This document shows, piece after piece, positions 16,113 to 45,851 of a DNA stretch of 64,000 nt; position 1 is the stretch's first letter; every line of letters begins with the position of its first letter. The stretch comes from a virus. The stretch is from positions 3,232 to 67,231 of IMG/VR virus record IMGVR_UViG_3300025133_009407. The stretch is one strand, 5' to 3'. The translations under genes were made by a program, and so were the position numbers. The notes under the pieces are model-generated. The model saw only the letters and a program-made list of their open reading frames with translations, searched no databases and was not told where the DNA came from.

Positions 16113-17096
16113 ATGCTAAAAGCAGTAATTACGGGAGTCGCGGGGCAGGATGGAAGTTATCTAGCAGAGCTGCTGTTGGAGAAGGGCTACGAGGTCATTG
16201 GCCTTGCACGCCGTCATGCTTCTGTTAAGGAATATAGTAATATAAAAAATGCGCTTGTCAACAAAAACTTTAAGCTTTTTGAGGGTGACATCACCGACAC
16301 TACATTAATTGCCAGAGTATTGCATGATCACAAGCCTCATGAGTGGTATAATCTTGCGGCAATGAGCCACGTTGGCCAGTCGTTCCGAGAGCCTCTGGCG
16401 ACGTTTGATGTTAACGCAAAAGCCGTGATGGGCCAGTTAGAAATGATAAGGCAAATCTCTCCTTATACAAGATTCTATCAGGCGTCTACATCAGAATTAT
16501 TTGGTGGGCTAACTTGTCCTAAGGCTGGTTATGATGAATCTTCGCCGTTTCATCCTCGCTCTCCATACGGGGTAGCAAAGCTTGCTGCGTATTGGGCTGT
16601 AGTTAACTATAGGGAGGCTTATGGTCTGCATGCATGCAATGGCATACTTCATAATCACAGTAGCCCACGCAGAGGCTATGACTTCGCTACGAGGAAGATT
16701 ACTAGAGGTATCGCGAAAGTTAAGCTTGGAATGGAGACTTCCCTTAAGATGGGAAACCTAGAGGCATTCCGCGATGAAGGACACTCTAAAGATTATTGCA
16801 GAGCAATGTGGATGATGTTACAATCGGATGCTCCAAGAGATTATCTTGTATCCACCGGATCTGGAGCTACCATTAGAGAGATGTTCGAATATGTCTGCAC
16901 TCTTGCCGGATTTACTTTAGAAGGTGTATATGAGATGAACGAGCGTTTTATGCGACCTTCTGATGTTCCATTTTTGCTTGGTAACCCGACAAAAATAAAG
17001 GAAGAGCTGGGCTGGGAGCCAGAATATAATTGGAAGTCATTATTGAAAGAGATGTATGAAAATGATCTTTTAGAATTGGCTAGCTTCAGTATATAG
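16113..17096 (+). CDS. gmd: GDP-mannose 4,6-dehydratase
   Basis: ITGVAGQDGSYLAE, YQASTSELFG, PRSPYGVAK, NHSSPRRG..F.TRKI. Confidence 0.95.
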   Translation: MLKAVITGVAGQDGSYLAELLLEKGYEVIGLARRHASVKEYSNIKNALVNKNFKLFEGDITDTTLIARVLHDHKPHEWYNLAAMSHVGQSFREPLATFDVNAKAVMGQLEMIRQISPYTRFYQASTSELFGGLTCPKAGYDESSPFHPRSPYGVAKLAAYWAVVNYREAYGLHACNGILHNHSSPRRGYDFATRKITRGIAKVKLGMETSLKMGNLEAFRDEGHSKDYCRAMWMMLQSDAPRDYLVSTGSGATIREMFEYVCTLAGFTLEGVYEMNERFMRPSDVPFLLGNPTKIKEELGWEPEYNWKSLLKEMYENDLLELASFSI

Positions 17097-17144
17097 CACA
17101 TTCTAAATGTTTACTAATCATTCCTTCTAAAATAGGAGGCAAAA

Positions 17145-17594
17145 ATGAGGAAAGAAACTTTGGATAATTTAGAAAAAATCGAAAAGCCTTGGGGCTATGA
17201 GGTTATTTGGGGAAGAAGTGCTTCTCAAGATGGATACATCGGAAAGCTTCTCTTTATTGATGCGGGTGAGAGATTGTCGATGCAATATCACGAAGATAAA
17301 GAGGAGACGATTACTGTTAAGACCGGAACTCTTTATCTCCAAACGATAGGCCTTATAACAGAGGATGTTAATAGCAGAGAGTTAATGAAAACTTCTATAA
17401 AAGAAATAAAATTAATTCCTGGGGATGTATATCACATTCCTCCCTTTATGACTCATAGATTTGCTGCTAAAGAAGAAAATGTTGAGATTATAGAGGTTAG
17501 TACGTGCTTTTTAGATGACGTAGTTAGAATTCAAGATGATTATGGAAGGCTAGGTGATGAAGATGAGGGTCTTTGGGGCGACGACGACTGCTAA
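17145..17594 (+). CDS. Cupin (mannose-6-phosphate isomerase type II-like)
   Basis: KPWGYE, LSMQYH..KEET, HIPP..HR, EVST..DDVVR..DDYGR; SD GGAGG. Confidence 0.88.
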   Translation: MRKETLDNLEKIEKPWGYEVIWGRSASQDGYIGKLLFIDAGERLSMQYHEDKEETITVKTGTLYLQTIGLITEDVNSRELMKTSIKEIKLIPGDVYHIPPFMTHRFAAKEENVEIIEVSTCFLDDVVRIQDDYGRLGDEDEGLWGDDDC

Positions 17595-17926
17595 AGAACT
17601 CTTTCTAAATCTTCTACTTTATTACTGGCATCCTTATTTTTTAGATTCTTGTTCAGAGTCTTAAGTCTTTTTCTTACTTTGTCTAAAAAGTCTCCAGTGT
17701 AATCTTCGTTGCTTCTAAAAAATTCTGGCTTTTTGGTCTCTGCCTCTTTAGTGAATGGATGAGGATTATCTTTAATATAGCTAAACATACTCTCTAGCTC
17801 ATCTTTGCTCATTTCATCTAGCAAAGACTTTCCTGTAATTTCTTTACTTATAGACATAAAGACGGGATCATAATCCCATGCGATATTCATATCTTCTGCC
17901 AAATTTATAACGTCGGTTTTTAACAT
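17591..17926 (-). CDS. Hypothetical protein
   Basis: 111-aa ORF filling an otherwise empty gap; convergent stop overlap with the cupin gene. Confidence 0.6.
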   Translation of the reverse strand: MLKTDVINLAEDMNIAWDYDPVFMSISKEITGKSLLDEMSKDELESMFSYIKDNPHPFTKEAETKKPEFFRSNEDYTGDFLDKVRKRLKTLNKNLKNKDASNKVEDLERVL

Positions 17927-18025
17927 AAATTATCCATATCTATTTTAAATAATAATAGTTTGAGCATTGAAATTGTATAATATCATCATCCTACTTTTGG
18001 GTGCGGAGGAGCTTTTTAGAAGACT

Positions 18026-18982
18026 ATGAAAATAACTATTATTGGATTTAACTTTGGTCCCACACGAGCATTTACAAATGGGCCAGGGATGTCTTTGCGA
18101 AACTTTGTACATTCGATACGAAAGAATTGCTTTCCATTTGTAGAGGTTTTTACAGCACTTCCTGTAGAGGAAGAGGTAGATGGAGTAAGATTCTTCTCAA
18201 TAAGGGATCAAAAGAGGCTTCGTCTATCAATTCGTGATGCAGATGTTGTTCACCATTGGAGCGGTATTGACGAAAGATTTGTGAATATTATAAAGTTCGC
18301 CGCAGCACTTGATAAGAAGATAATTTGCGGTCCCAATGTATTAGATACGGTTCAACTTAAAAAGGAAAATACTTATCTGGAAGATTCAAAGATAAGTTTG
18401 TTTTTAACTGTAAACAATAGATTAAAATACCTTATCTCCAAACAGCATGTAATTCCTATTGATAAAATGAAGACTTTTATCGTTGGCCCGAGCCTGGACC
18501 TTTGGGCTCCAGCCGAGGATCAAGGAACCACCGGAATTTTATGGAAGGGGAACTGTAATCACAAGGTAAAGGATATAGAGTTTGCGCTTAAAGTGAGGGA
18601 TGCTCTTCCTCAGTATAAATTTTTATTCTTAGGATATCCTGCCCCATATAAGTACCGCGAACACATTTCTGTTGCCAAAACGGCTAAACTGTATATAAAT
18701 ACTTCGATGTCAGAAACGAAATCCCAAACGCTAATGGAAAGTTGGGCATCTGGAGTTCCCTCTGTAACTCATCCAAAAATTTATATGCATGGCGAGAATT
18801 ACAGAACAGGAATCATAACCACTAAAACTATCGAAAACTATGTTGAAGCGATTTCGGAAATTATGGAAGACAAAACCTTGCGAGAGGGCTTGTCTGCTGG
18901 CGCAGTTTCTTACTGCAAAGAGAACTTCTCCGAAAGAACCATAAGAGATCGATATTTTCGCTTACTAAAAAGGATAAAGTGA
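18026..18982 (+). CDS. GT-B glycosyltransferase
   Basis: GPG, ICGPN, SETKSQTLMESWASGVP. Confidence 0.7.
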   Translation: MKITIIGFNFGPTRAFTNGPGMSLRNFVHSIRKNCFPFVEVFTALPVEEEVDGVRFFSIRDQKRLRLSIRDADVVHHWSGIDERFVNIIKFAAALDKKIICGPNVLDTVQLKKENTYLEDSKISLFLTVNNRLKYLISKQHVIPIDKMKTFIVGPSLDLWAPAEDQGTTGILWKGNCNHKVKDIEFALKVRDALPQYKFLFLGYPAPYKYREHISVAKTAKLYINTSMSETKSQTLMESWASGVPSVTHPKIYMHGENYRTGIITTKTIENYVEAISEIMEDKTLREGLSAGAVSYCKENFSERTIRDRYFRLLKRIK

Positions 18983-19716
18983 TGCTTGTAGATATTATAA
19001 TCCCAGCTTATAATCCCGGAGCCGATTTATTTGAAGCACTAAAGAGCTGTACCCAGCAAAAGTATAAGAAGTATACTGTTACTGTTATAGACGATAATTC
19101 ATCAGAAGATGTAGCCAAGGTTGTTTCTAAATTTCCAGGATATAGATATATTAGAAATGATAAAAATCTTGGGCCATCCGGGGCGAGGAACGTCGGCATC
19201 AACAGTACAAGCGGGGATTTGATCAGCCTGCTAGATGCTGATGACCTAATGCATCCAGATAAGCTTCTTCTTTCGGTTAAGGAGTTTGCGGACGAAGAGG
19301 TTGGCCTTGTTTGCGGGAATTATCAGATTTTAGTAAATAGATCGAGGCTGATGAGGCCTTTTTACAAGAGGCCGATCACGATAAATCACTCAGCGCTGAT
19401 GCGCCAAAACTTTGTAGCCTCCGGGTCAACAACCTTCCGGCGGTCTCTTATAGAAAGGATAGGAGGCTTTGATGAAAGATTTTGGATTTCCGAAGATTAT
19501 GCATGTTGGGTTAGACTTTCAGAAATATGCAATATAAAATATATACATGAAGTATTATATTATTACTCTGTTTCTCCTGGAAATAGCTCTTTAACCCAGA
19601 GGAGTGATATCCAAAAGGATCATGACAAAAATATAAAAATAATCAGAAGAGAATCAAGAGAGAGGATAAAATGCCTAAGCGAAAAGAGAGAGTTGGAGAA
19701 AAACATGGGAGACTAA
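18979..19716 (+). CDS. GT2 glycosyltransferase
   Basis: IIIPAYN, VIDDNS, GPSGARNVG, LDADD, GGFDE..SEDY. Confidence 0.93.
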   Translation: MMLVDIIIPAYNPGADLFEALKSCTQQKYKKYTVTVIDDNSSEDVAKVVSKFPGYRYIRNDKNLGPSGARNVGINSTSGDLISLLDADDLMHPDKLLLSVKEFADEEVGLVCGNYQILVNRSRLMRPFYKRPITINHSALMRQNFVASGSTTFRRSLIERIGGFDERFWISEDYACWVRLSEICNIKYIHEVLYYYSVSPGNSSLTQRSDIQKDHDKNIKIIRRESRERIKCLSEKRELEKNMGD

Positions 19717-20636
19717 CGGTGACTGCCTTATCAGTCAGAACAAAAACTGGCGATGTATGGTGGAAATGTAAGTGTCAATGTGGCACATCAACAGATGTGA
19801 GAGCTGGACTATTGTCTAGAACAAAGTCTTGCGGGTGTGCTAAGCTGAAGCATAATTTATCTAATAAGAAATATGGAAAGTGGTCTATTTTAAATAAAAA
19901 AATAACTAAAGGTAGAGTTATACATTGGTTGGCAAGGTGTGAGTGTGGAAGAGAGAAATATGTTTCCTCATATTCATTAAGAGCAGGAAAGAGTAAAGGC
20001 TGTGGATGTTCTGATATTAATCATTACTATTTCAACGCCATAAATACAGAGACGGCTTACTTGGCGGGATTTATAGGCGCAGATGGAAATCTTGATGATA
20101 AAAGATTGAGGCTTAGAATAAATTTGTCCAATAAGGACTCAGAATATTTGAGAAAAATCAGTATTATTATGGACGCAGAAGGTCTTTATAAATTGGCAAA
20201 AAAAACATGTCATTTGGAAATTTATTCTTCACAAATTTACAAAGATTTAGTTAACAACTTTGGGCTAAAGCCAAGAAAAACTTTTGATTTATTACCACCT
20301 CTTAACTTGAGCAAAGAACAGAGGATAGCTTATATGGCTGGATATATAGACGGTGACGGCTCCATTGTAGACTACCATAATGAAGCGGGGAAGTTGGCGA
20401 TAAGAATAGTTGGAAATAAAAATATTCTTGAGTATTTTAAAAAAGTCTTAGAGTCCGATCTTAAGATGAAAATTGGAAAACTTCATCCTGAGAAAAGAAG
20501 TCCTGGCATTTATACCCTTGTCATAGGTGGCAAAAAATGTATAGATCTATATCACGAAGTACTAAAAGATGTTCCACGCAAAATGTTAATGAAGAGAAAG
20601 TGGTTTAAACTTGATAAATATATGGGCACCAAATGA
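19671..20636 (+). mobile_element. Free-standing LAGLIDADG homing endonuclease with two N-terminal Cys-rich repeats
   Basis: Two LAGLIDADG helices (YLAGFIGADG, YMAGYIDGDG); repeats WKCKCQCG..KSCGC and WLARCECG..KGCGC. Confidence 0.85.
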
Positions 20637-23038
20637 GTCTCAAGTTAAAGAATAAAAATATTCTAATAAAGACCTACCTGTCTGAGTCGGGATTATTTTA
20701 TTTAGGCAAATCTCTAGGAAAACACCTAGAGGCTTCTGGCAATAGGGTTTCGTATATCGCTAAGGAAAAGTACAAGAGAGATGATCGCGGATCATTCCGC
20801 CGTTTTTACCCAAAGCCTTACGATAAAAGTTCTTTGGATGGCCTCCGTATTATTAAGACGAACCAAAGAGATACTATTGAGGCACAAACGCTAAGAGCGG
20901 TTAAGGTTCACAAGATAGATGTTATAATATCTTTAGAAACCTTTATGATGAAAGCGCAATGGATAAAGAAGGTTAGAAAGGCTGGAGTCATCGTTTACGA
21001 CGTTCCGATGCCAGAGTGGACCAATAAGCGATTTGTTGATAATAATTCGTATATTATCTTCAATAAGATTCTTTGCCTGACAGATACTTCGCTGCAAGTA
21101 TTTTCAAAATATAAAGCCGCAGAAAAATGTGAATGGGATTATGTAGACCGGGAACTCTTTGTGAAGAGGGTAGATAAGGCCTCTTTGCCGGAATTAACAT
21201 TTTATCACCCTGGTTCGTTAAATCCGGGGTTTACCCAAAAAAATACAACTCAAGTTTTAAAAGCGTTCTCAGGTTTTATTGAGAAAACCAAAAGTAATTG
21301 TAAATTATTGGTTACAGGAAATCTTGATGCGACTCAATCAAATATAGCTAAAAAATGTAAGAAAATCATACTAATATCCGGAGTATTAGATAGGGAGAAA
21401 GTAGCATCTTTATACGATAAGTCGCATTGTTTGATAATCCCCTCTACGAGAGAAGGGCTTGGCCTTAGTTTCTATGAGGCCGCAGCTATGGACTGCGGGG
21501 TTATAACTACAGATGCTGATCCGATGAACAAACATACGGACTATCTTGCGAAAGTAATCTCGTATAATAAGAATGAAAGTCCTGTTCCATTTGCCATAAC
21601 TTCTCCTGAAAACATTGAGGAACAGATAAGAAAATACTATGAGGATTTTAATATGAAAAAACAAAAAACCCAAGAAGAAATTGAGCGTGAGAACAATAAG
21701 TTGCTAGAAGCCTTTGAGGCTCAAGACGAAGATGATCACGCCAAGCCCAGCGGTATGGACCCAGCGGTATTAGCAAAATTAAAGAATAAAATGGACTCTA
21801 CGGTGGCCAATACGGAGGAAGAAGTGGAAGTTGTTACACAGCGAAAAGTAAGTATAGAGCTTGCTGTAATCGGAGTTGGACAGGCTGGCTCTAGAATAGC
21901 CGAAGTTTTTCATAAAAAAGGATATGACGTAGGTGTAATTAATACCTCGGAGCAGGATCTTGAGTTTATCGATGTTACGCCTGGGCAGAAACTATTGCTC
22001 GACGGAAGCCTCGGTGGCACAGGAAAGGACCTTGATCTTGGAAGAGAAATCTTTGCAGACAGCATTGATCAGATTGCCCCATTCGTAGAAAATGTGATCG
22101 ACGGAAACAATATGGCTTATTTGGCAGTCTCCGGTGGTGGTGGTACGGGCTCAAGCTCCGTAGACACACTGATTCCAATGCTATATGAAACTGGCCTTCC
22201 GGTTGGTGTCATATTTGTTCTGCCAAAAGCAACTGAGGATGCTCAGTCAAAGAGGAACTCAATAGAAACTCTCTCTAGACTTGCAAAGTTAACTACTGAT
22301 AATATGGTTTCGAATCTTATCGTTGTTGATAACGCTAGAATTGAACAGATTTACGCAAACTTAAGTCAGTCTAATTTCTGGGAGGCATCAAATAATGCAA
22401 TCGTAGAACCGCTACATATCTTCAACTCATTAACTTCTACTGCATCTAGGTTTACATCATTAGATCCAAGTGATTTTGGAAGAATTATTTCATGTGGTGA
22501 TTGTTCTATATATGGAGTGATGACTGTTGATGACTATATGGAAGAGACCGCGCTTGCCGAGGCGGTGATTGAAAGCTTAAATTCTAATATGCTAGCATCT
22601 GGTTTCGATATCTCGCAGACACGCGCCGGTGGTGTGATTATAACAGGGCCAAGTGAAGTTCTAAATAGGATTCCTGCATTAAATATTAACTATTGTTTCC
22701 ATATGATTTCGGAACAGACCAATGGAGCATCAATTTATCAGGGCGTTTACGCTGTTGAGTCAGATGAGGATTGTGTAAAGATTTATAGTTGGTTCGCTGG
22801 ATTGGGTCTTCCGAAAGATCGAGTTGATAACCTGAGAAAAGAGAGCCAGCAGCATGCTGCAGTTGCGACAGCCAAGGAAAAGAGTCGAGCATCGGTAATG
22901 ACTCTTGATCTCGGGGATGACAAAGTGAATACCGTTGCGGAAGAGGTTACTAGAAAGATTCAAAAGAAGAAGTCTAGCTTCAGTCGGTTGCAGCGAGGAT
23001 CGAGATCTTCCATTATAGATAAGAGAAGGAAGAAGTAA
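20633..23038 (+). CDS. GT4-like glycosyltransferase fused in frame to a tubulin/FtsZ-family GTPase
   Basis: aa 1-340 carry PSTREGLGLSFYEA..VITTD. aa ~408-730 carry VIGVGQAGSRIA, INT, GGTGKD, GGGGTGSS, VVDN and LDPSD. There is no intervening stop. Confidence 0.88.
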   Translation: MSLKLKNKNILIKTYLSESGLFYLGKSLGKHLEASGNRVSYIAKEKYKRDDRGSFRRFYPKPYDKSSLDGLRIIKTNQRDTIEAQTLRAVKVHKIDVIISLETFMMKAQWIKKVRKAGVIVYDVPMPEWTNKRFVDNNSYIIFNKILCLTDTSLQVFSKYKAAEKCEWDYVDRELFVKRVDKASLPELTFYHPGSLNPGFTQKNTTQVLKAFSGFIEKTKSNCKLLVTGNLDATQSNIAKKCKKIILISGVLDREKVASLYDKSHCLIIPSTREGLGLSFYEAAAMDCGVITTDADPMNKHTDYLAKVISYNKNESPVPFAITSPENIEEQIRKYYEDFNMKKQKTQEEIERENNKLLEAFEAQDEDDHAKPSGMDPAVLAKLKNKMDSTVANTEEEVEVVTQRKVSIELAVIGVGQAGSRIAEVFHKKGYDVGVINTSEQDLEFIDVTPGQKLLLDGSLGGTGKDLDLGREIFADSIDQIAPFVENVIDGNNMAYLAVSGGGGTGSSSVDTLIPMLYETGLPVGVIFVLPKATEDAQSKRNSIETLSRLAKLTTDNMVSNLIVVDNARIEQIYANLSQSNFWEASNNAIVEPLHIFNSLTSTASRFTSLDPSDFGRIISCGDCSIYGVMTVDDYMEETALAEAVIESLNSNMLASGFDISQTRAGGVIITGPSEVLNRIPALNINYCFHMISEQTNGASIYQGVYAVESDEDCVKIYSWFAGLGLPKDRVDNLRKESQQHAAVATAKEKSRASVMTLDLGDDKVNTVAEEVTRKIQKKKSSFSRLQRGSRSSIIDKRRKK

Positions 23039-23039
23039 G

Positions 23040-23963
23040 ATGGCAGTAGATAAGGTCTTCTACAATAAGTCTAGCGCAGACTCTCTTGGCTGGACTCCGG
23101 AGTGGTTTGGTGCAGATCATTTTGATGAGAAGTTAATCTCTAATGTTAAAAGATGGCAGAGAGCAAGAGGACTCCTTGCTGATGGACTTGTTGGTCCAAC
23201 TACTTATAGGAGAATCTGGACTGATCGTGAAGCGGAGATCTCAAAACATAAACCATCAGAGAAATCTTTTGATAAACATAAAATTGAGAATGAAAAGATT
23301 AGTATTGTCCATAATGGAAAATTTATCCCCATAGATTGGGATAAGGTAATCTTGTGGAGCGAGTCTGGCGGCTTAAAAGCTGATGATGGAACTTATTATG
23401 ATTATGCTGGAAAGCCAGACAGGGCTCCGACTTTTTTTGTAAATCATTGGGATGTATGTCTATCATCAGAATCTTGCGAAAAGGTTCTTAATAACAGAGG
23501 TATCTCAGTTCACTTCTCTATTGATAATGACGGAACAATTTATCAGCTCTTAGATACCCAACATGGAGCTTGGCATGCAGGGAACGGAAAGGCTAACAGA
23601 GCCTCAGTCGGTGTTGAAATAAGTAATGCTTATTATCTGAAGCACCAGTCTTGGTATGTGGATAATGGTTTTGGAGAAAGGCCGATACAAAGTGGGGCAG
23701 AAGTCCACGGCGGAACTCTAAAGGATTTTACTTGGTTCTATCCGGAACAGATAGCTGCCCTAAAGGCTCTTTGGGCTGCAATCAGTACTGGGCTAAACAT
23801 ACCTCTAGAATATCCTAAGAACGCCTCTGGAGAGTTGTGTACCACTATTCATGAAGAATGTAGGAAGGCCACCTTTAATGGGTTCTGCAATCATTATAAT
23901 ATAAGCAAGAGAAAGATAGATTGCGCCGGATTACTTCTTGACGAATTAATGGAAGACCTTTAG
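23040..23963 (+). CDS. N-acetylmuramoyl-L-alanine amidase with peptidoglycan-binding domain (putative endolysin)
   Basis: WQ..GLLADGLVGPTT; SVHFSIDNDGTIYQ, AWHAG, SVGVEI, H...KIDC. Confidence 0.88.
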   Translation: MAVDKVFYNKSSADSLGWTPEWFGADHFDEKLISNVKRWQRARGLLADGLVGPTTYRRIWTDREAEISKHKPSEKSFDKHKIENEKISIVHNGKFIPIDWDKVILWSESGGLKADDGTYYDYAGKPDRAPTFFVNHWDVCLSSESCEKVLNNRGISVHFSIDNDGTIYQLLDTQHGAWHAGNGKANRASVGVEISNAYYLKHQSWYVDNGFGERPIQSGAEVHGGTLKDFTWFYPEQIAALKALWAAISTGLNIPLEYPKNASGELCTTIHEECRKATFNGFCNHYNISKRKIDCAGLLLDELMEDL

Positions 23964-24027
23964 CCAAATTTGTTTTTGTGGTCCCAGTCGAAACGGAGTT
24001 TAATATAACTCCTGACGCTGAGGAATT

Positions 24028-26565
24028 ATGATAGAAATTATATTAAATAATGTAAACTGCGAACTCCGGGGACAGCTGGATAGCGAAGTCGTTAAGAGCC
24101 TCGATAAGATCATGAGCTATGATCATCCGGGCTATATGTTTATGACTGGCGCTCGCGGAGGCTATGGTAATGGCGGAGCTTCTGGCGGTTGGGACGGAAA
24201 GGTGAGGCTTCTAACTAAGAACGGAAAGTTTCCGATTGGACTTCTTAGCGTAACAGAATCTTTATTGAAAGAGAAAAAAATTCCATACAAAATTCGGGAT
24301 CAAAGGCCAGAGTTGCACTATGGAAAAGAACTTCCTCTTATCAGCGATAAATTTGAGATAAGGCCTTACCAGTTTGGAGCAGTAAAGAGGGCAACTGAGG
24401 CTGGCAGTGGAATTATGAAGATGGCCACCGGATGTCATGCAAAGGGCGCGGAAATACTCCTGTATGATGGTTCTGTGAAAAAGGCAGAAGACGTAGTCGT
24501 TGGAGATCTCCTAATGGGCCCGGATTCAAAGCCGAGAAGGGTTTTGGAACTTTGTCGAGGAAGAGATAGGATGGTAAAGATAAATCCCACAAAAGGGGAT
24601 TCTTTTACGATTAATCAAGATCACATTTTGTCTCTAAAGAGAACTAAGCGCCGCACTGGCGACAAAAAAGCTGGAAATATTGAAGATGTAAAATTTTCAG
24701 ATTGGGAAAGATTAACTCCTTATGGAAAGCATATAAGAAAACTCTTTAGAGTTGGTGTTGATTTTTCTAAAAAAGAATTATTAATGGATCCATATTTAAT
24801 GGGTCTTTTGCTTGGAGACGGAAGCCTCCATTCGTCAATTGGAATTACCTCTGTAGATAAGGAGATAATTTTTTACTGCAAAAATAAAGCAGAAGACTTA
24901 GGTTTGTATCTTAGAAAAAATGGTTTAACATATTATTTTACAACTGGGTTTAAAAATAAAGGAAAAAATAAACTTATAAACATAGTAAGGAAAGAAGGAC
25001 TGCACCAGACTGGGTCTGGAAATAAGTTTATTCCAAAAAATTATAAAACTTCGAATAGAGCTGATAGGCTTAGCTTACTTGCTGGTATTCTGGATACTGA
25101 TGGATCTTATGACGGTAAGACATATGACTTTATATCTAAATCAAAAAAGCTATCAGAGGATGTTGCCTTCGTATCAAGGAGCCTTGGGCTTGCCGCTTAT
25201 ATTTCAAAGCAATATAAGGTGTGTACAAATAACGGGGTTGGAGGATATTATTATAGGGTTTGTATATCTGGCGAATTAAGCGAAATTCCATGCAAACTCC
25301 CCAGAAAGAAGGCTAATCCAAGGCGTCAGAAGAAAAGCGTTTTAGTAACCGGCTTTAAATATGAGGAAGCAGGAATTCAGGATTATTATGGATTTAAGGT
25401 AGACAAAGATCACAGATACCTAATGGGAGACTTTACTGTTACGCATAATTCTGGAAAAAGCTTTATTATAGCAACCTTGGCGGCAAAATACAATATTCCA
25501 ACCGTTGTTTATGTAATTGGAATTGAGCTTTTATATCAGATGAAAGAAACTATAGAAGCTGCATATGGAATTCCATGCGGCATAGTTGGTGGTGGATTAT
25601 GTGATACCTCAAAGCAGGTAACTATTATGACCATTTGGTCTGCGGCAGCCGCCTTTAACAAGAAGGCTAAGGTGTCAGACAATGACACAACGGGAGATTC
25701 CAAGAAGCATACAGATAAGTTAAATAAGGCTTCTGTAAGAAAGCGAGTTCAAGAAGCTCAGCTGTTTATCTTCGATGAGTGTCAATATGCTGCGTCAGAA
25801 ACTCTTCAGTTTCTACATCGGGCAAGCATATCTGCTAAGCATAGATTTCTTCTCTCTGGAACGCCGTGGAGAGATACGGGTGACGACATCTTAATCGAAG
25901 CGGTGTCTGGTCCAAGGATTTGCGATATCAGTGCAACGAAGCTAATCAAACAAGGGTACTTAGTTCCTCCGGATATTCATTTCTTAGACGTCCCAGTTAT
26001 GAGGGGTGTCGGAAAGACGTATCACGATGTATATAAAGCATATGTTGTAGAGAATGAAGAGAGAAATGATCTTATCTTTAAAGCGGCAAAGAAGCTTGTG
26101 GCTGCTGGAAAGAAAGTCTTAATCTTAGTTGTAAGAGTAAAGCATGGTCAACTTTTATATAAAAAGCTTAAGGATGAATTCTCTGTAAGTTTTCTAGATG
26201 GAGCAAAGAGTAGTAAGGTACGAATGAGTGCTATTCAAGATATGAAAGATGGAAAAACAGAGATCTTAATTGCATCAAAAATCTTTGATCAAGGAATCGA
26301 TATTCCTGAGCTTGATGCTTTGATCTTGGCGGGGTCTGGAAAGTCTTCCGGTAGAGCGTTGCAGAGAATAGGGCGAGCAATAAGAAAGCACAAGGGAAAG
26401 AAGAAAGCAATAATTGTTGAGTTTTTTGACAACTGCAAGTATCTAAGAGATCATTCTGAGGCTAGGATAAAAGTTTATAGAAGTGAGCCTGCGTTTGTCC
26501 TTAAGATCCAAAAGAATAAGGCCTTAAAGACTTATCCCAAGCGGGCTCCAGTGAAGTGGTCTTAA
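24028..26565 (+). CDS. Superfamily II helicase (UvsW/XPB-like), intein-containing
   Basis: RPYQ; Walker A ATG|SGKS split by an intein; DECQ, SGTPWR, GIDIP, QRIGR. Confidence 0.9.
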   Translation: MIEIILNNVNCELRGQLDSEVVKSLDKIMSYDHPGYMFMTGARGGYGNGGASGGWDGKVRLLTKNGKFPIGLLSVTESLLKEKKIPYKIRDQRPELHYGKELPLISDKFEIRPYQFGAVKRATEAGSGIMKMATGCHAKGAEILLYDGSVKKAEDVVVGDLLMGPDSKPRRVLELCRGRDRMVKINPTKGDSFTINQDHILSLKRTKRRTGDKKAGNIEDVKFSDWERLTPYGKHIRKLFRVGVDFSKKELLMDPYLMGLLLGDGSLHSSIGITSVDKEIIFYCKNKAEDLGLYLRKNGLTYYFTTGFKNKGKNKLINIVRKEGLHQTGSGNKFIPKNYKTSNRADRLSLLAGILDTDGSYDGKTYDFISKSKKLSEDVAFVSRSLGLAAYISKQYKVCTNNGVGGYYYRVCISGELSEIPCKLPRKKANPRRQKKSVLVTGFKYEEAGIQDYYGFKVDKDHRYLMGDFTVTHNSGKSFIIATLAAKYNIPTVVYVIGIELLYQMKETIEAAYGIPCGIVGGGLCDTSKQVTIMTIWSAAAAFNKKAKVSDNDTTGDSKKHTDKLNKASVRKRVQEAQLFIFDECQYAASETLQFLHRASISAKHRFLLSGTPWRDTGDDILIEAVSGPRICDISATKLIKQGYLVPPDIHFLDVPVMRGVGKTYHDVYKAYVVENEERNDLIFKAAKKLVAAGKKVLILVVRVKHGQLLYKKLKDEFSVSFLDGAKSSKVRMSAIQDMKDGKTEILIASKIFDQGIDIPELDALILAGSGKSSGRALQRIGRAIRKHKGKKKAIIVEFFDNCKYLRDHSEARIKVYRSEPAFVLKIQKNKALKTYPKRAPVKWS
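24433..25449 (+). mobile_element. Intein (339 aa) with LAGLIDADG endonuclease in the helicase P-loop
   Basis: Starts CHAKGAEIL, ends VTHN followed by Ser; GLLLGDG and LAGILDTDG. Confidence 0.93.
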
Positions 26566-30356: not shown

Positions 30357-30644
30357 ATGGCTATTTACAATTTCAAATGTAATACATGCTCTTCGGTAGT
30401 GATATTAAATATTTCTATAAAGAAGTTTGAGCAGCAAAGCCTGGACTGCGCCTTTGACGAAATGATTTGCGAGAATTGTGAGAATTTGTCTGAATTTACT
30501 CGAATCTTCAACATGTCTTCTAGTAAGATAAAAAGAGATAACGAAGAGATAATGAGACAAATCAAAGAAGATTCTAGAAAAATCGTTCGAAGTATTCAAA
30601 GCGGAAATACAAAAACTATGAGAGATATTTACGGAGAAGAATGA
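30357..30644 (+). CDS. FmdB-like zinc-ribbon protein
   Basis: MAIYNFKCNTC...CENC. Confidence 0.65.
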   Translation: MAIYNFKCNTCSSVVILNISIKKFEQQSLDCAFDEMICENCENLSEFTRIFNMSSSKIKRDNEEIMRQIKEDSRKIVRSIQSGNTKTMRDIYGEE

Positions 30645-32563
30645 TGCCGGGTAAGAAAAAGGTAAGCCTCCTAGAGGCATTAAGCAGCCATGTTGATGCA
30701 GTAAGCGCCCTAGAGTGGGAAGGAACCCTGGCAGACTATGTTGATATAATTACTAAAGCTCCCAGCCTACATCGTGGAGCCCACCAGAGGGTTCTTGATA
30801 TGATTGATGCAGCTGGAGTAGAGCGAGATAGTGACGGAGTGGCCACAAAATATCACTTCTTCGATCAAGATCTATTCGGGATCGAAGAGTCTATCTCTGA
30901 AATAATGTCATACCTAAAGGCTGCAGCGGCTGGAAGTGAAGTATCTAGGCGAATTCTTCTACTCTATGGTCCCACTTCCTCAGGAAAATCTCAGCTTGCT
31001 GTTCTTCTAAAGAAAGGGTTGGAATCTTACTCAAAGACTGAAGCCGGAAAGACTTACTGCTTATCTGAATCCCCTATGTACGAAGATCCTCTTTGTGCCA
31101 TTCCAATGGAGTTACGCCCCAGATTTGAGGAAGAGTATGGAATTAAGATAGATGGCTTATTGAGCCCAATTATGGAGCTTTTGCTGAAAGAGACGTATGG
31201 CGGAGACTTTTTGAAGCTTCCGGTTAAGCGCTTTTTCTTCTCAGAGCAGTCTAGAGTTGGAGTAGGAACCTTTGTTCCGTCTGATAAAAAGAGCCAGGAT
31301 ATCTCTGAGCTAGTTGGATCGATGGACCTTAGCAAGATTGGAGAGTACGGTTCAGAATCTGATCCGAGAGCATATCGATTTGATGGTGAGCTTAACGTTG
31401 CAAATAGAGGCATCATGGAGTTTGTTGAGATGCTCAAAGTAGATCAGAAGTTCCTATACGTTCTTCTTACTTTGGCTCAGGAAAAGAATATTAAGACTGG
31501 CCGCTTCCCGTTTATTTATGCAGATGAGTTCTTGCTGGCACACAGTAATGAAACAGAGTACAAGAGATTCTTGGCGAAAGACGAGATGGAAGCGCTCCAC
31601 GACAGAATTATTGTTGTGAAGGTTCCTTATAATCTAAACGTAGCTGATGAGGTTAAGATCTATGAGAAGTTGATCGGTCAGGCGAGATTTGGGGATACCC
31701 ATATTGCTCCATACACTCTATATTGCGCTGCTATGTTTGCGGTGCTATCACGTCTAAAAGATTCTAAGCACGAGGGGCTTACTAACTTAAGCAAGATGAA
31801 GCTTTATAACGGAGAAGACATCGAAGGATTCTCCAAGGTTGATATGCCAATCTTAAAGAAAGAATTTGAAGAGGAAGGCATGACCGGTGTATCTCCGAGA
31901 TATATCATAAACCGAATATCTTCGATGTTAGCACAGGACAATGCTGATTGTGTTACTCCAATTGATGTAATCAGAGCCATTAGAGATGGCTTCAGCACTA
32001 ATCCAAAGCTAGACAAAAAAGAAATTCATAGGCTTGAAAATATTTTAACCTCAGTTATCGAAGAGTATAGCAAGATTGCTAGGAACGAAGTGCAGAAAGC
32101 ATTCTTCGTTAACTTTGAGCAGGAAGTTCAGAATCTTCTCTCAAACTACATGGATCATGTTGGAGCCTTCCTTGATAATACTAACACTCAGAATGAATGG
32201 GGCGAGCCTAGTGAGCCCAATGAGAGATTGATGCGATCAATTGAAGAAAAGGTTGGTATTTCAGAGACTGGCAAGAAGTCATTCCGTCAGGAAATATATC
32301 GAAAGATGCTCAAGTCTGCTTCTGCAGGCGGCAGAGATTATAATTACAAAGATCACGTCAAACTAAGAGAAGCTCTAGAGAAGCAGCTGTTTGACGAGAG
32401 ACAGGATGTAATTAGACTGACCGTTAGTACCCGAAACCCGGATGAAAATGAACTTAAGAAGGTTAACGTTGTAATTCAGACCTTGTGTGACAAATATGGT
32501 TACAGTGCCAAGAGTGCAAACAAGCTGCTAAGATATGTAAGCTCATTGATGGCCAGAAACTAA
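30641..32563 (+). CDS. prkA: PrkA/YeaG family AAA+ protein (annotated serine protein kinase)
   Basis: RRILLLYGPTSSGKS, DISELVGS.D, SDPRAY.FDGELNVANRG..EFVEMLK, HSNE.EY, EAL.DRI, G.SPRY. Confidence 0.95.
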   Translation: MMPGKKKVSLLEALSSHVDAVSALEWEGTLADYVDIITKAPSLHRGAHQRVLDMIDAAGVERDSDGVATKYHFFDQDLFGIEESISEIMSYLKAAAAGSEVSRRILLLYGPTSSGKSQLAVLLKKGLESYSKTEAGKTYCLSESPMYEDPLCAIPMELRPRFEEEYGIKIDGLLSPIMELLLKETYGGDFLKLPVKRFFFSEQSRVGVGTFVPSDKKSQDISELVGSMDLSKIGEYGSESDPRAYRFDGELNVANRGIMEFVEMLKVDQKFLYVLLTLAQEKNIKTGRFPFIYADEFLLAHSNETEYKRFLAKDEMEALHDRIIVVKVPYNLNVADEVKIYEKLIGQARFGDTHIAPYTLYCAAMFAVLSRLKDSKHEGLTNLSKMKLYNGEDIEGFSKVDMPILKKEFEEEGMTGVSPRYIINRISSMLAQDNADCVTPIDVIRAIRDGFSTNPKLDKKEIHRLENILTSVIEEYSKIARNEVQKAFFVNFEQEVQNLLSNYMDHVGAFLDNTNTQNEWGEPSEPNERLMRSIEEKVGISETGKKSFRQEIYRKMLKSASAGGRDYNYKDHVKLREALEKQLFDERQDVIRLTVSTRNPDENELKKVNVVIQTLCDKYGYSAKSANKLLRYVSSLMARN

Positions 32564-32564
32564 A

Positions 32565-33749
32565 ATGTCTAAGGCATCAAAAGCCGAGCAGAGCCTGTCA
32601 GATATCTGGAAGCTCAAACAGAGGGGCAAGAGAGATTCTGACAGGCAGAAGAAGCTTGTCAATGATGCCATTAGGAAGAATGGAAAGGATTTAATTACAG
32701 AATATAATATCATTCAATCAGATGGTGATAAGAAGATTAAGATCCCGATTCGTTTCTTGGATCGTTATAAATTTAAGTACGGAAAGCTCAAGGATAAGTC
32801 TGGAACAGGCCAGGGACTTGATGTAAAGCCGGGCGATAAATATAAAATAAGAAGCGGAAAGAAAAAGAAAGCCCCAGGGGCTGGAAAAGCAGGCGATGAA
32901 GAAGGCGAGATAGCTTTTGAAGCAGAAGTCTCTATTGATGAGCTTGTAGATATTTTGCTGGATGAGTTGAACCTGCCGTGGATGGAGCCGAATAAAAGCT
33001 CAGCCATCGAGGTAGAGACTGAAGATCTATCCTCTATAGAGAAGAAGGGCATCTATCCTAATTTAGATCTGAAAAAGACATTAATCCAAAATCTTAAAAG
33101 AAATGCTGCAAAAGGCAACGCAAAGATTGGTGGCATTAACGAGAATGACCTAAGGTACAGAACGTGGGAGACTAACAAGGAGTATCATTCTAACGCAGCT
33201 ATATACCTAATGATGGACCGCAGCGGCTCAATGAGTGCGGAGAAGAGATATATAGCTAAGAGTTTCTACTTTTGGATGGTTCAGTTCTTAAAGAGAAGAT
33301 ATAAGAATATCAAATTAGTCTTTATCGCTCATGACACTAAAGCTTATAAGGTTGAGGAGAAGGAGTTCTTTGCTGTCACAAGTGGCGGCGGCACAAAGTG
33401 TAGCTCTGCATTTAAAATGGCATACGAGCACATGGTAGAGCATCATCCGATTGAGACTTGGAATAACTATGTTTTCGAATTTTCAGACGGAGATAATTGG
33501 GGTGACGACAATCTGCTCGTACTAGATTATATAGCTAAAATGCTACCACTAGTCAGGGCAATAGGCTACGGAGAAATTACTCCAGAAAATGAATTCGCAT
33601 GGAATGTTGAGGAGAATCGCCTATCGGCTTTGCTGGAAAAAACTGTTAAGCGAACACGATTTGTCTCTATCAAGATCTCGTCTAGAGATCAAGTTTTTGA
33701 TGCACTAAAAATGTTTTTTAATATTGACGGGAAAGCAGTTAAGGCTTAA
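32565..33749 (+). CDS. yeaH: YeaH/YhbH (DUF444) vWA-domain protein
   Basis: AGDEEG, LNLP, DLRYRTW, MMDRSGSM, FIAHDT, GGGTKCSS, FSDGDNW. Confidence 0.93.
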   Translation: MSKASKAEQSLSDIWKLKQRGKRDSDRQKKLVNDAIRKNGKDLITEYNIIQSDGDKKIKIPIRFLDRYKFKYGKLKDKSGTGQGLDVKPGDKYKIRSGKKKKAPGAGKAGDEEGEIAFEAEVSIDELVDILLDELNLPWMEPNKSSAIEVETEDLSSIEKKGIYPNLDLKKTLIQNLKRNAAKGNAKIGGINENDLRYRTWETNKEYHSNAAIYLMMDRSGSMSAEKRYIAKSFYFWMVQFLKRRYKNIKLVFIAHDTKAYKVEEKEFFAVTSGGGTKCSSAFKMAYEHMVEHHPIETWNNYVFEFSDGDNWGDDNLLVLDYIAKMLPLVRAIGYGEITPENEFAWNVEENRLSALLEKTVKRTRFVSIKISSRDQVFDALKMFFNIDGKAVKA

Positions 33750-33758
33750 AAATAGAAG

Positions 33759-35339
33759 ATGGAGCGCCTAATAAATAAAGAAGAACTCATAAACCTTCTT
33801 GACAAGAAAATATCTGTTCGAGCTATGGCAAAAGAGGTGGGGTGTTCTCATACTACTTTAATCAAGCGTGTCAAAGAGCATGGCCTTTCTAATTATGGAA
33901 GAGAATATAGAGATAAAGATATACTTTCTAAATTATATTTAAAAGAAAATAAAACAATATCTGAAATAGCCTCAATTTATGGCGCATCTCAAATAACTAT
34001 TTCAAAGTATATAAAAAAGTTTGAGTTGAAAAAAACAATAGAGGCAAAGGCAAGTGCCACTCTTACAAAGAGAAAGGCAACATGCCAAGACCTATATGGT
34101 GTTGATAACGTCATGCAGCTTGAGAAGACAAAGCAGGCTGCAAAAAATACTTCGATAGACAGATACGGAGCCGAACATTATTCTAAAACAGAAGAATGGA
34201 GAACAAAGGCGGTAGCTAAAAATTTAAAGAAATATGGTGTCAAATGGACTCTTGACAGGGGAGATGTTAAGGAGAAAATAAGCACAACATTACTAAGGAA
34301 ATATGGGGTTACCAATCCATCATTCATTAAAGGTATTTCGGATAAGAAAAGAGAAACTCTATTAAAAAATCATTCGGGCTCAAAAGGAATCGTTCACAAT
34401 ATTGAGGGATATACTTCAAGACAGATTTCTGATCTGTATAATATTCCTTACTCAAGTGTTAATTACTTTATAAACAAATATCAAGTAGATACCCTGAAGT
34501 CCCTGAAGGAGATAGCAGATAAGTCTTCGTCAGGTCAAAATGGTTTAGAGAAATTTGCGGAAAAAGAGTTTAAACTATCATTTTATGACAAACAAGCACC
34601 TGGGGTCGGTGGATATAGACCCGACTTTCTTGTAAAAGACGGAATATACATGAATGCCGATGGACTATATTGGCATAGTGAACTTAGAAATAATGATAAA
34701 TGGTATCATTTTAATCTTAGAAAGAAATTTGAAGAAAATAATTATAGAATTTTACAATTTCGTGAAAATGAAATTTTGAAAAAAACAGAATTAGTTAAGT
34801 CAATGTTGTCTCATTTATCAGGGAATACTCCTAATAAGATTCATGGAAGAAAAACGGTTTTTGAGAAGCTGAGCATAAAGCAGGCCAGAAGTTTTCTAGA
34901 TAGAAATCATATTAAAGGATTTATGAACTCAAATCATTATGGCCTAATGCTTGGAGGAGCGCCGGTTGCCATTATGTCCGTAAGACTATTTGGATCGACT
35001 ATCAAAGTCGATAGATTTTGTACAAAAATGTCAACCGTAGTTAACGGAGGGTTTTCGAAGCTTCTTAAGAACATATCAGAGCTTTACGAGTTTGACAAGA
35101 TTGATTATTGGGTAGACCTAAGATACGGTTCTGGAAGTTTTCTTAAAAATTATGGTTTTAAAATAAAAAAAGAAACACTTGGGTGGGAGTGGACTGACTT
35201 GAAAAATACATATAATCGCCTCAAGTGTAGGGCAAATATGGACAATAGAATGCTTAGTCAGGCTGATCACGCATCTGAATTAAAACTAGTCAAAATTTAT
35301 GATGCAGGCCAAAGGCTATGGATAAAGGAGCTGAGATGA
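33759..35339 (+). mobile_element. Free-standing putative homing endonuclease (HTH, KYGV repeats, PD-(D/E)xK-like nuclease, Hef-like C-terminus)
   Basis: N-terminal HTHs; repeats LYGVDN/RYGAEH/KYGVKW/KYGVTN; RPDF..NADGLYWHSE; FLDRNHIKG, RFC, GGFSKLL, IYDAGQ. Confidence 0.75.
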
Positions 35340-41736: not shown

Positions 41737-42093
41737 ATGATAACTAAGATTTTAACAGATCGCGTAAACTTTGATCGAGACGTAAAAGAGATACGTCAGC
41801 AATGGTTACGCGATCTGTTTTTATTTATAGGGCTTGATGCAGATGGCATGCTGGAGATCCCTCGGGATCAGGCTATAGACTACATGCTCGAAAATAATGT
41901 TGAAGTCATAGAGTATAAAGGTATAGAGGCTTTGGAGATTAAGCTTGACGGAGAAACCGTAGGCGAGTGGGCCGGACCTGAATATAAGTTAAAAGAAGAC
42001 CAAGAAGATCGGTCTCTTTATTTTGAAGCAACAATAGAACATTGGTCGATCATAGAAGATGATATGGACATTGATACAGCGGAGACACCTTGA
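41737..42093 (+). CDS. Hypothetical acidic protein
   Basis: 118-aa ORF between nrdJ and phoH with a coupled stop/start. Confidence 0.7.
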   Translation: MITKILTDRVNFDRDVKEIRQQWLRDLFLFIGLDADGMLEIPRDQAIDYMLENNVEVIEYKGIEALEIKLDGETVGEWAGPEYKLKEDQEDRSLYFEATIEHWSIIEDDMDIDTAETP

Positions 42094-45000: not shown

Positions 45001-45851
45001 GCATTTATCTGTATAATTCTTCCATAGAAGATAGAATTTCTCTCCTAAGGGGGCTAATGGATACAGATGGAACTATAAAGAAAAATGGCGAAACCGTCTT
45101 TTATACTACGTCTAAGCAATTAAAAGATGACATAACCACTTTGGTAAGATCTTTGGGTGGAAATGTAACTGCTCGAGAAAGAGATAGGGAAAAAGAAGAG
45201 TCCAAAATGCTTGCCGGAAGAGCAATCAAATCTGGAAAAATCTTTGATTGCCAAATAAGTCTTCTAAATAATATTAATCCTTTCTTTCTGAAGCGAAAAG
45301 CAGAACGACGTAATACAAAATTTATATATGATATTTGTATTTCTTCTATAGAATATATTGGAAAGAAAGAAGCAAAATGTATTATGATAGATAATCCAGA
45401 GCACTTGTATGTAACGGATGACTTTATAGTAACTCATAATACCAAGTACGAGAAGATGGAGCCTTGGATTCAGCCAATCATAGATAATTTAAAGTTCATC
45501 TTTAAAAATGGAGAAACATATTTCCAAATGATGATGGAGAAGGGTCAGCTAGAAGTTGAGGCTTTATCATTCATTAGGGGAAGAAGTCTTCCTAATACTA
45601 TCTTTATTTTAGACGAGGCTCAGAACATCACTTACACTGAGGCTAAGGCCGTCATAACAAGAATGGGAGACAATTCAAAGCTTGTTATGCTAGGCGATTT
45701 AGAGCAGATAGATGCTCCACATTTAGATGCGGCAACCTGTGGCCTTGGAGCTATTGTTGAGAGGTTTAAGGATTTTCACCTAGCTTCACATATTACCCTT
45801 CTCAAGGGAGAGCGGAGTCCTCTGGCAGCATACGCTGCTACGATACTATAA
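42090..45851 (+). CDS. phoH: PIN-PhoH (PhoH2-type) protein with two inteins
   Basis: PIN: FILDTSV, EEVD, NDNKI, SRDINVRVK. PhoH: GIAGSGK|T, GFLPG|TK.EKM.PW, RGRSL, DEAQN, GD..QID. Confidence 0.93.
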   Translation: MKNNKKNFILDTSVLVYHEDSIHAFPNQNVIIPMEVLEEVDNLKMRHDAVGNAARYINRFLDELRQHGSLKDGVTLENGETISVYVESEYDELPSSMLDTNDNKIIAVALKMSKKLKNVVLISRDINVRVKCDSLGIASENYHKEKAVISRKGAYTGVTVKQFEPADIQEFYDLGGIDYNGGDLFTNEFLVLKGGAQSALGMFRNGRIKPLAFNKRNNLVQGITPRNKEQSFALESLLDPNIHLATLSGIAGSGKAQPLDSKILTPTGWTTMGEVQIGSKVIGKDGRSANVIGVYPQGIKDIYRIKFSDGTSTRACGEHLWHTRTQLDRDTKRGGSIKSTYEMMESLRSGKCSKKNHSIPIVSPVEFRSPGPLPMHPYLLGSLLGDGGMSVGNPVFSSEDEESVEILAEMLFAIDCDIKKIPNSSCDYRITGFLDASCGGAISRRLRSTNIFTGDIDIYESPKYIKEKSDLCYSSISRAISKENRVYRDCEWEYLDKNKQSNNPLKSLLMQEGLWGCRSGDKFIPDRYKFTSVENRISLLRGLMDTDGTVSKSGHQPTFCSTSKALAEDTAFLVRSLGGKATISSRYTTYTHKNEKKIGKQSYRVRISLKEGYNPFLLKRKADRWIPNKLVNLRKYVDSIEFEEKTYAQCIMIDSEDHLYVTDDCIVTHNTLLATAAAVHMLNEGVYEKIVISRPIQSLSGEMGFLPGPQPLDAKVLTPSGWTTMGEVKVGSSVISRNGVATKVLGTYPKGTKDIYKITTRDGRTTECCEDHLWFTRTAEDKKRGRPGGVKATRDIINSLYTAGGKINHFLPRNEPIQFEPKELPLPPYLLGALIGDGSLSDSISFFNVDKEVIERVRLETESLGCSLVRSGETIQYNLRGNERNKKPAQPIRITNIKTGDITEYSRVGIASEDMGIDKGTLRSRCNSVHPHNGMSYEFLEKKNRWQNPIKEELHNLGILFQGSKNKSIPSIYLYNSSIEDRISLLRGLMDTDGTIKKNGETVFYTTSKQLKDDITTLVRSLGGNVTARERDREKEESKMLAGRAIKSGKIFDCQISLLNNINPFFLKRKAERRNTKFIYDICISSIEYIGKKEAKCIMIDNPEHLYVTDDFIVTHNTKYEKMEPWIQPIIDNLKFIFKNGETYFQMMMEKGQLEVEALSFIRGRSLPNTIFILDEAQNITYTEAKAVITRMGDNSKLVMLGDLEQIDAPHLDAATCGLGAIVERFKDFHLASHITLLKGERSPLAAYAATIL
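42855..44099 (+). mobile_element. Class 3 intein (415 aa, Ala1) in the PhoH P-loop
   Basis: Starts AQPLDSKIL, ends VTHN|T; WCT triad EHLW / AQCI / YVT; LAGLIDADG motifs. Confidence 0.9.
44214..45440 (+). mobile_element. Class 3 intein (409 aa, Pro1) after the PhoH GFLPG motif
   Basis: Starts PQPLDAKVL, ends VTHN|T; WCT triad DHLW / AKCI / YVT; LAGLIDADG motifs. Confidence 0.9.

Follow-up and report, generated by a model that had tools for sequence, protein, structure and literature searches.

Tubulin-like proteins of phages are known as spindles and partition motors; to our knowledge none carries an enzyme, and we know of no PhuZ of a nucleus-forming jumbo phage that is fused to one. Glycosyltransferases can be guided by a cytoskeleton, as with MurG, which works with MreB and FtsZ complexes, and nested in-frame starts that yield co-assembling isoforms are familiar from phage genes such as T7 gene 4A/4B, lambda C/Nu3 and phiX174 A/A*. 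In plastids, the glycosyltransferase PDR1 is reported to be associated with the FtsZ ring (PMC5877594). Here we describe a 64,000-nucleotide stretch of viral DNA (IMG/VR record IMGVR_UViG_3300025133_009407, positions 3,232 to 67,231; hereafter the window) with an open reading frame (ORF) at 20633..23038 in which a GT4-type glycosyltransferase (GT) is joined in frame to a TubZ-like tubulin. All features of this ORF lie on the plus strand.

What is new is that a phage tubulin of the TubZ family has a GT4 enzyme attached to it covalently and still keeps an internal start. The ORF had been singled out from its letters alone (below, the sequence-only reading) as a GT-tubulin fusion of a kind not previously described. 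A full-text literature search agrees, having found no description of such a fusion; supplementary tables, which it did not cover, may list one. None appears in the excerpts available of PMC7824862, PMC12619734, PMC12484599 and the preprint 10.64898/2026.10.24.761521. Source databases automatically label members of the family 'cell division GTPase FtsZ/glycosyltransferase', so the sequences are already public, though undiscussed in the literature searched. Comparison with relatives indicates that the fusion is genuine, old and conserved in a family of marine huge phages. It supports the genetic side of the sequence-only reading, whose cell-biological picture, a minority fusion isoform bringing glycosylation to filaments along which capsids travel, is drawn by analogy.

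One ORF joins a GT4 enzyme to a TubZ-like tubulin

The ORF, supported by the ORF call, Pfam and relatives, encodes 801 residues plus a stop codon without internal stops, and its start ATG overlaps the stop of the gene upstream (ATGA). As the sequence-only reading held, residues 1-340 are in frame with a tubulin/FtsZ domain, and all the motifs it named lie where it had placed them. The GT-B domain (residues 1-340, 20633..21652) is identified by Pfam, AlphaFold2 (AF2) and Foldseek. Pfam matches are Glycos_transf_1 at residues 201-339 (50.7 bits against a cut-off of 26.4) and Glyco_trans_1_4, and in PHROGs the half matches glycosyltransferase phrog_2170 (E 1.3e-12). Modelled alone from 46 fused and stand-alone sequences (55 references minus 9 near-duplicates), the domain reached a predicted local distance difference test score (pLDDT) of 93.7 and a predicted template modelling score (pTM) of 0.90. 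Its Foldseek matches are retaining GT4 enzymes, namely chlorovirus B736L, MshA, BshA, glycogen synthase and PimA/B (E ~1e-11 for MshA, BshA, glycogen synthase and PimA); profile matches include BshA 2jjm (E 2.3e-9) and Gtf1 (4pqg), a GT4-family protein O-glycosyltransferase (E 0.0036).

An E-x7-E motif in the C-terminal domain is a hallmark of GT4 enzymes, and here it reads EGLGLSFYE (residues 274-282, 21452..21478), with E274, G275, G277 and E282 invariant in 46 of 46 fused and stand-alone GTs. By profile, predicted fold and this motif, the GT half is of the GT4 / GT-B retaining type. The fold matches cover UDP-, GDP- and ADP-sugar enzymes, so no donor specificity can be read from the fold. 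The proposed paralogy to the ORF at 13213 stands insofar as both are GT4-family proteins, but the relationship is distant (38% identity over residues 188-304, E 6e-9). Among viral proteins, the GT has its best fold match in BFVD A0A5K0UAG6, an 813-residue Yasminevirus 'glycosyltransferase' (template modelling (TM) score by query 0.79, 21% identity); it nearly equals the fusion in length, and the match concerns the GT domain.

The C-terminal half carries two Pfam domains: Tubulin PF00091 at residues 410-574 (21860..22354; 45.5 bits, or 47.8 for the C half alone, against a cut-off of 33) and TubZ-like_C PF22453 at residues 598-734 (22424..22834; 31.7 bits against 26 when the C half was scanned alone), the latter also supported by alignment to 4ei7 and by Foldseek. 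The best sequence match in the PDB is RepX/TubZ 4ei7 (E 1.3e-17, residues 399-733), compared with ~1e-9 for archaeal FtsZ and 0.062 for PhuZ 3zbp; the PHROGs match is phrog_4733, 'tubulin PhuZ' (E 5e-6). Foldseek ranks TubZ structures 3j4s, 2xka and 4ei7 at the top (E 2e-21 to 4e-20, target-normalised TM 0.73-0.79), with FtsZ and CetZ after them. By sequence and predicted structure, this half is thus TubZ/RepX-like rather than PhuZ-like. Capsid trafficking as in nucleus-forming phages, on which the sequence-only reading drew, is therefore an analogy only.

The glycine-rich signature of the GGGTG[ST]G type and the T1 loop are the nucleotide-binding motifs of the tubulin/FtsZ family. In the fusion, GVGQAG (residues 414-419, 21872-21889) and SGGGGTGSS (residues 500-508, 22130-22156) are invariant in alignments of 25 and 72 sequences. 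A predicted T7-like loop, SLDPSDF (residues 609-615, 22457-22477), has invariant D611 and D614 and aligns with a D-x-S-E stretch of RepX 4ei7. Judged by their invariant motifs, both halves look active.

Residues 341-405 (21653..21847; 16 D+E, 11 K+R) had been taken for a separate acidic linker between the domains. Stand-alone tubulins start at the Met341 position and carry the same extension, so the supposed linker is the tubulin's own N-terminal extension, serving as a predicted tether in the fusion; E353, N354, L357, A360, L380 and L383 are conserved across fused and stand-alone tubulins (alignment A1, 25 chosen proteins). The C-terminal tail (residues 751-801, 22883..23035) is indeed basic, with 15 K+R against 6 D+E, and Ser-rich, with 11 S+T in 51 residues; K775, I776, K779, S781, F783, Q787, S793 and D796 are invariant. 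The AF2 model of the whole protein (72 fused sequences) has a mean pLDDT of 76.9 and a pTM of 0.46, with ~90 in the GT half and ~70-88 in the tubulin half; pLDDT falls below 50 at residues 344-346, 361-376 and 386-405 and in the tail. The predicted architecture is thus one of two folded domains joined by a flexible tether. A complex prediction of residues 1-340 against 341-801 (alignment A3) gave an interaction prediction score from aligned errors (ipSAE) of 0.00 in both runs, which counts neither way.

The fusion is conserved across marine phage loci

Ten marine metagenome runs hold the fusion gene, and no RNA run was among those listed. The junction (21630-21655), for which the sequence-only reading had called for read support, is bridged by contigs from three of them (X2, 21598-22000; X3, 21432-21720; X5, 21396-22000) and none of these contigs shows a difference or a gap there; all three runs are from one year and possibly from one campaign. 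Because indels are common in short A and T runs such as those at the junction, an error of sequencing or assembly, or a stop codon lost recently in this contig alone, is conceivable. Given the identical junction in three other runs, 43 other unique fused loci and clear purifying selection on both halves, we regard the probability of such an artefact as practically negligible. The source record is a 67,231-base virus contig with a CheckV completeness of ~20%; relatives span 316-395 kb.

We searched 5.8 billion proteins for homologues, with 120 of 260 matches listed. Among the matches listed, the two Pfam families occur together in 75 proteins other than the query (P0004-P0077 and P0088; 90%-identity clusters), at 51-89% identity and on contigs of up to 348 kb. 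The others are tubulin-only proteins of ~450-550 residues, 61-76% identical to the C half, which begin at the position aligned with Met341 (alignment A1). With 106 loci fetched in addition to the window, 107 were classed by tblastn and reading frame as fused (60), split (26) or without a GT match (21). De-duplication left 82 unique loci (44 fused, 19 split and 19 without a GT match, ~9 of these last being too short upstream to judge). Relatives therefore do not consistently interrupt the two domains with a stop codon: the 63 unique loci that hold both halves comprise 44 fused and 19 split.

In the split loci a full-length GT, catalytic motif included, lies directly upstream of the tubulin in another frame, mostly with overlapping or abutting stop and start; in L065 it lies in the same frame and is followed by a stop. 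The last GT codons of these loci, Y-[YCG]-[EGK]-[DE], spell GAGGA, GGAGA or AAGGA, which constitutes the Shine-Dalgarno (SD) sequence of the tubulin, whose ATG follows a few bases on, inside or just after those codons. This element is also present in fused loci, where the two frames are joined.

In a wider search, we ran a profile built from the 72 fused proteins against 1.84 billion representatives and inspected the best 150 of 14,031 matches. Both halves were present in the full-length fused P0030 and the fragment P0124, and among these best 150 a GT-fused tubulin occurred only in this phage family. The ESM Atlas returned separate GT clusters (scores 0.87, below the 0.9 lead level) and large clusters of stand-alone TubZ-like tubulins from tailed phages, with no fusion. 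Of ten other long matches from the profile search that were scanned with Pfam, six (P0159, P0163, P0166, P0203, P0211 and P0240) are intein-bearing tubulins rather than GT fusions. In these six, the tubulin match picks up again at profile positions 496-512, near the GGGTGS signature, and inteins in a tubulin-family protein are possibly of separate interest. Three tubulins (P0146, P0214 and P0236) have N-terminal extensions to which Pfam assigns no domain, and P0247 (624 residues) has a tubulin domain followed by an AAA+ lid domain, another unusual tubulin fusion.

An internal tubulin start is conserved at the base level

As the sequence-only reading had pointed out, an SD-like GAGGA (21641..21645), which lies within the last GT codons (Y-Y-E-D), ends 7 nucleotides before the in-frame ATG of Met341 (21653..21655). 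Judged by the aligned starts of stand-alone tubulins, this ATG is the ancestral tubulin start. It is present in frame in 44 of 44 unique fused loci, preceded by a purine core of GAGGA (31 loci), GAGGT (2), AAGGA (8) or GGAGA (3), with 7 nucleotides separating the five-base core from the ATG in 43 loci and 4 in one; these counts come from related sequences and are not independent trials. At the core position the residue may be E, K or G, and the two residues that separate the SD from Met are free to differ, yet the purines of the core persist; it is the bases that are conserved and not the amino acids. The core codon is GAG in 33 of 33 cases of Glu and AAG in 8 of 8 cases of Lys, never GAA or AAA; throughout the same fused ORFs, GAG makes up 48% of Glu codons and AAG 46% of Lys codons.

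At the internal start, the calculated SD duplex energy ranges from -5.9 to -6.8 kcal/mol in 42 of 42 loci with a complete GT start, and at the GT start it has a median of -3.75 kcal/mol (range +1.7 to -10.2). The internal SD is the stronger in 33 of the 42, a rough comparison because the GT starts were selected mechanically; a fusion made in smaller amounts would fit this. Predicted folding of the 60-nucleotide window around the junction ATG is weak (median -2.85 kcal/mol versus -9.3 elsewhere in the same ORF), placing it among the weakest 10% of folding windows in 36 of 40 complete fused ORFs. As a control within the window alone, SD energy has a median of -5.6 at gene starts and -2.1 at internal in-frame ATGs, and 36 of 344 such internal ATGs (~10%) reach -6 or lower, compared with -6.1 kcal/mol at Met341. 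The single sequence is therefore not significant, and the weight comes from conservation among relatives. A promoter scan of 17000-24500 found 31 promoter-like sites against 20.5 +/- 4.9 expected, all weak and none convincingly before Met341.

The invariant ATG, the base-level conservation of the SD and the aligned starts of stand-alone relatives thus favour the earlier proposal that both proteins could be made. On this comparative evidence the nested start very probably works and yields free tubulin alongside the fusion, and we consider it likely that the two products are made from this one gene.

History of the fusion

We built a tubulin-domain tree from 74 of the 82 unique loci (IQ-TREE quick, LG+G4), leaving out seven with an incomplete tubulin match and L095, which has a stop codon in the tubulin match. 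The root was placed on nine distant tubulins of 41-48% identity, eight of which have no GT4 match upstream and one of which is too short upstream. A clade with a support of 99 in the Shimodaira-Hasegawa-like approximate likelihood ratio test (SH-aLRT) contains 42 fused, 13 split and 2 unassigned rows, and its early branches are all fused. Nested within it are three split groups (L018/L020/L024/L019/L025/L065; L009/L067/L070/L073/L087; and L063 with L064). Outside the clade are the split loci L078, L079 and L102 and the loci L080 and L093, which are without a GT. The tree requires a minimum of 5 fused-to-split changes, at least 3 of which are forced by well-supported branches. Constraining the fused rows to one clade was 104 log-likelihood units worse (approximately unbiased test, p-AU 0.00025), with a grouping that was set by gene structure but tested after the tree was seen.

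Between sister pairs (split L063 and fused L094 and L005; the split L009 group and its fused neighbours) the difference is a small indel located after the SD and before the ATG. The tree suggests one old fusion followed by three or four fissions, each through a small frame change. A fission by indel yields two working genes only where the internal start functions, and the fissions therefore fit a start that was retained. By sequence comparison, the fusion itself derives from a GT gene and an adjoining TubZ-like tubulin gene that formerly overlapped at stop and start and were joined by a small frame change. The family would thus be a natural example of overlapping genes fusing and re-splitting with the internal start kept, and would show how a fusion can keep expression of its downstream half.

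Genomic context

The first 20 kb of the window form a glycan-synthesis cluster of ~20 consecutive plus-strand genes, of which the fusion gene is the last. The cluster comprises several GT4 and GT2-type transferases, a GT92, two sulfotransferases, a DegT aminotransferase, WbqC, GDP-mannose-dehydratase-type and epimerase genes, a methyltransferase and a GH130-like gene, which points to a phage-made complex glycan, possibly sulfated and containing 6-deoxy-amino sugars. Directly downstream of the fusion are an amidase with a peptidoglycan-binding domain, an intein-bearing UvsW-type helicase, a DnaC-like loader and DnaB, followed further on by PrkA, DUF444, SpoVR, class II ribonucleotide reductase, PIN-PhoH and Topoisomerase IA. 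Fused and split relatives share the gene order GT4b-GT2-[GT + tubulin]-(amidase)-UvsW-...-DnaB. In the distant loci L098-L106 and L026, the tubulin (41-48% identity) is preceded by a NAD-epimerase/dehydratase-like gene and a GT2, so the position at the edge of the sugar genes is older than the pairing with this GT.

Several other features of the region were observed. Between the GT2 gene and the fusion lies a free-standing LAGLIDADG endonuclease gene (19671-20636) whose stop overlaps the fusion ATG. Among relatives it occurs only in L028-L030 (74% identity), the others passing directly from GT2 to GT, and from this distribution it looks like a recent insertion. Inteins with a LAGLIDADG homing endonuclease are present in the UvsW-type helicase (24028-26565), SpoVR (35318-37933), class II ribonucleotide reductase (38935-41718) and PIN-PhoH (42090-45851), the last with two homing-endonuclease regions. 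The PrkA, DUF444 and SpoVR trio at 30641-37933 corresponds to the bacterial yeaG/yeaH/ycgB-type stress operon, here encoded by a phage; these genes are also reported for a 344-kb Ralstonia jumbo phage (PMC8504454). Three short contigs of metagenome-assembled genomes with a fusion-family gene (L108, L109 and L110) are labelled Actinomycetota, Pacearchaeota and Woesearchaeota. These taxa are inconsistent, the contigs are probably mis-binned phage, and we therefore infer no host from them.

A proposed mechanism and its alternatives

On balance we lean towards a reading in which the fusion is conserved, fusion and free tubulin are both made, and the GT is carried on the filament. One gene would give two products, a GT-tubulin fusion of 801 residues and a free tubulin of 461 residues starting at Met341. 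The free tubulin would probably polymerise like TubZ-family proteins, and fusion subunits would join the same filaments through their tubulin half, holding the GT on a flexible tether. No linker was added when the genes joined, the tubulin's own N-terminal extension of ~65 residues now tethering the domains. In split-gene relatives, the overlapping, coupled arrangement would supply both proteins together. Polymers of PhuZ and FtsZ can accommodate tags at the N-terminus, and an N-terminal enzyme on a 65-residue tether is therefore plausible. With GT-bearing subunits in the filament, the last enzyme of the 20-kb glycan pathway would be brought onto a cytoskeletal scaffold, where virion proteins, envelope glycans or the tubulin tail could be acceptors.

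Co-assembly of the fusion with free tubulin, with the GT carried on the filament, is the more tentative step, which we consider possible rather than probable. Bolder still, and in our view rather unlikely, is a 'catalytic filament', a polymer of free tubulin doped with GT-tubulin at a dose set by the internal start, so that GTs are arrayed along the track. If true, the virions, the cell envelope or the filament itself would be glycosylated in a spatially organised way, and the fusion would be the first case found of an enzyme that forms a covalent part of a tubulin polymer, prokaryotic or viral. The conserved covalent link, together with translational coupling in split relatives, is a 'Rosetta-stone' signal of joint work by GT and tubulin, found here in uncultured marine phages of 300-400 kb.

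Several observations weigh against the reading in which the GT is carried on the filament, among them that no gene for a TubZ partner was found beside the fusion gene. Others favour its main rival, in which a GT and a tubulin with unrelated jobs were joined by accident at a module border and the fusion is tolerated as nearly neutral. Fused and split states have switched at least three to five times, which could equally mean that the covalent link is near-neutral. The pair can be separated or its neighbour replaced, as the genes are ~100 nucleotides apart in L019, a thioredoxin-like gene stands between them in L102, and the distant tubulins (41-48% identity) follow an epimerase-like gene and not this GT. 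Gene order is conserved across the region and not for this pair alone, and the tether is flexible, with the low whole-protein pTM. Set against accidental joining, the fused state lasted across 44 unique loci while the GT half diverged to 39% identity, most split forms keep the overlapping stop and start typical of co-translated partners, and this is the sole GT-fused tubulin family among the best 150 of 14,031 matches. We therefore judge accidental joining unlikely, although it is the most serious contender.

Other points bear on the internal start. The two products are deduced by comparison; the mechanical choice of GT starts blurs the contrast in SD strength; the weak structure at the junction is not independent of protein composition, because Lys/Glu-rich coding is itself AT-rich; and Y-Y-E-D lies in the last GT helix of the AF2 model (H325-343), so its conservation may be partly structural. 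This last point, and the roughly one in ten internal ATGs of the window with an SD at least as strong, would suit a gene that makes the fusion only, with the junction Met and Y-Y-E-D kept for protein reasons and no initiation at Met341. Against such a gene, the core residue switches among Glu, Lys and Gly with the purines retained, protein function leaves the invariable synonymous choices of GAG and AAG unexplained, and the 7-nucleotide spacing is fixed though two intervening residues vary. Repeated successful fissions, moreover, require a working internal start, and we consider a fusion-only gene quite improbable. Of similarly low probability is a GT that modifies the tubulin itself, for example by adding O-linked sugars to its basic, Ser-rich tail and thereby adjusting polymerisation or the binding of partners, the fusion or coupled translation holding the enzyme near its substrate. 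The composition of the tail, its invariant S781 and S793, the existence of GT4-family protein O-glycosyltransferases such as Gtf1 and the conserved GT-tubulin pairing are in its favour. However, a 1:1 covalent link between enzyme and substrate is rarely needed, and the place of the GT at the end of a 20-gene glycan pathway suggests a complex glycan over a single sugar.

Comparison with known systems

The closest described relatives of the tubulin half are TubZ/RepX of Bacillus plasmids (4ei7, 2xka, 3j4s), with which it shares the TubZ-like C-terminal domain, the GTP-binding signature, a predicted T7-like acidic loop and a basic tail. It differs from them in sequence (~20% identity), in its conserved 65-residue N-terminal extension with a whole GT-B enzyme ahead of it, and in its location, flanked by genes for glycans and for replication in the genome of a huge lytic-type phage. 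Bacillus TubZ/RepX differ further in gene neighbourhood, as no TubR-like or small DNA-binding gene adjoins the fusion gene in the window or in the flanks of its relatives. With PhuZ (3zbp) the fusion has in common that it is a phage-encoded tubulin matching PHROG 4733, but the similarity to that structure is much weaker. The sole cultured-phage match in 50,697 records is gp138 of Bacillus phage G, an FtsZ/tubulin-like GTPase that matches the tubulin half (25% identity over residues 409-739, E 3e-15) but is without the GT half. Published work describes gp138 as undetected by proteomics and as grouping with bacterial sequences (PMC12484599).

The arrangement resembles genes of the T7 4A/4B type in its conserved in-frame internal SD and ATG and in long and short products, here predicted, that share the assembly domain. 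Unlike in those genes, the internal start here is what remains of a gene that was once separate, and a complete enzyme makes up the additional N-terminal part.

As with MurG and PDR1, the latter belonging to another GT family, a GT would be linked to a polymer of the FtsZ/tubulin family, a link that here is proposed only. In those systems, however, the association is non-covalent and cellular, whereas here GT and tubulin are one virus-encoded polypeptide.

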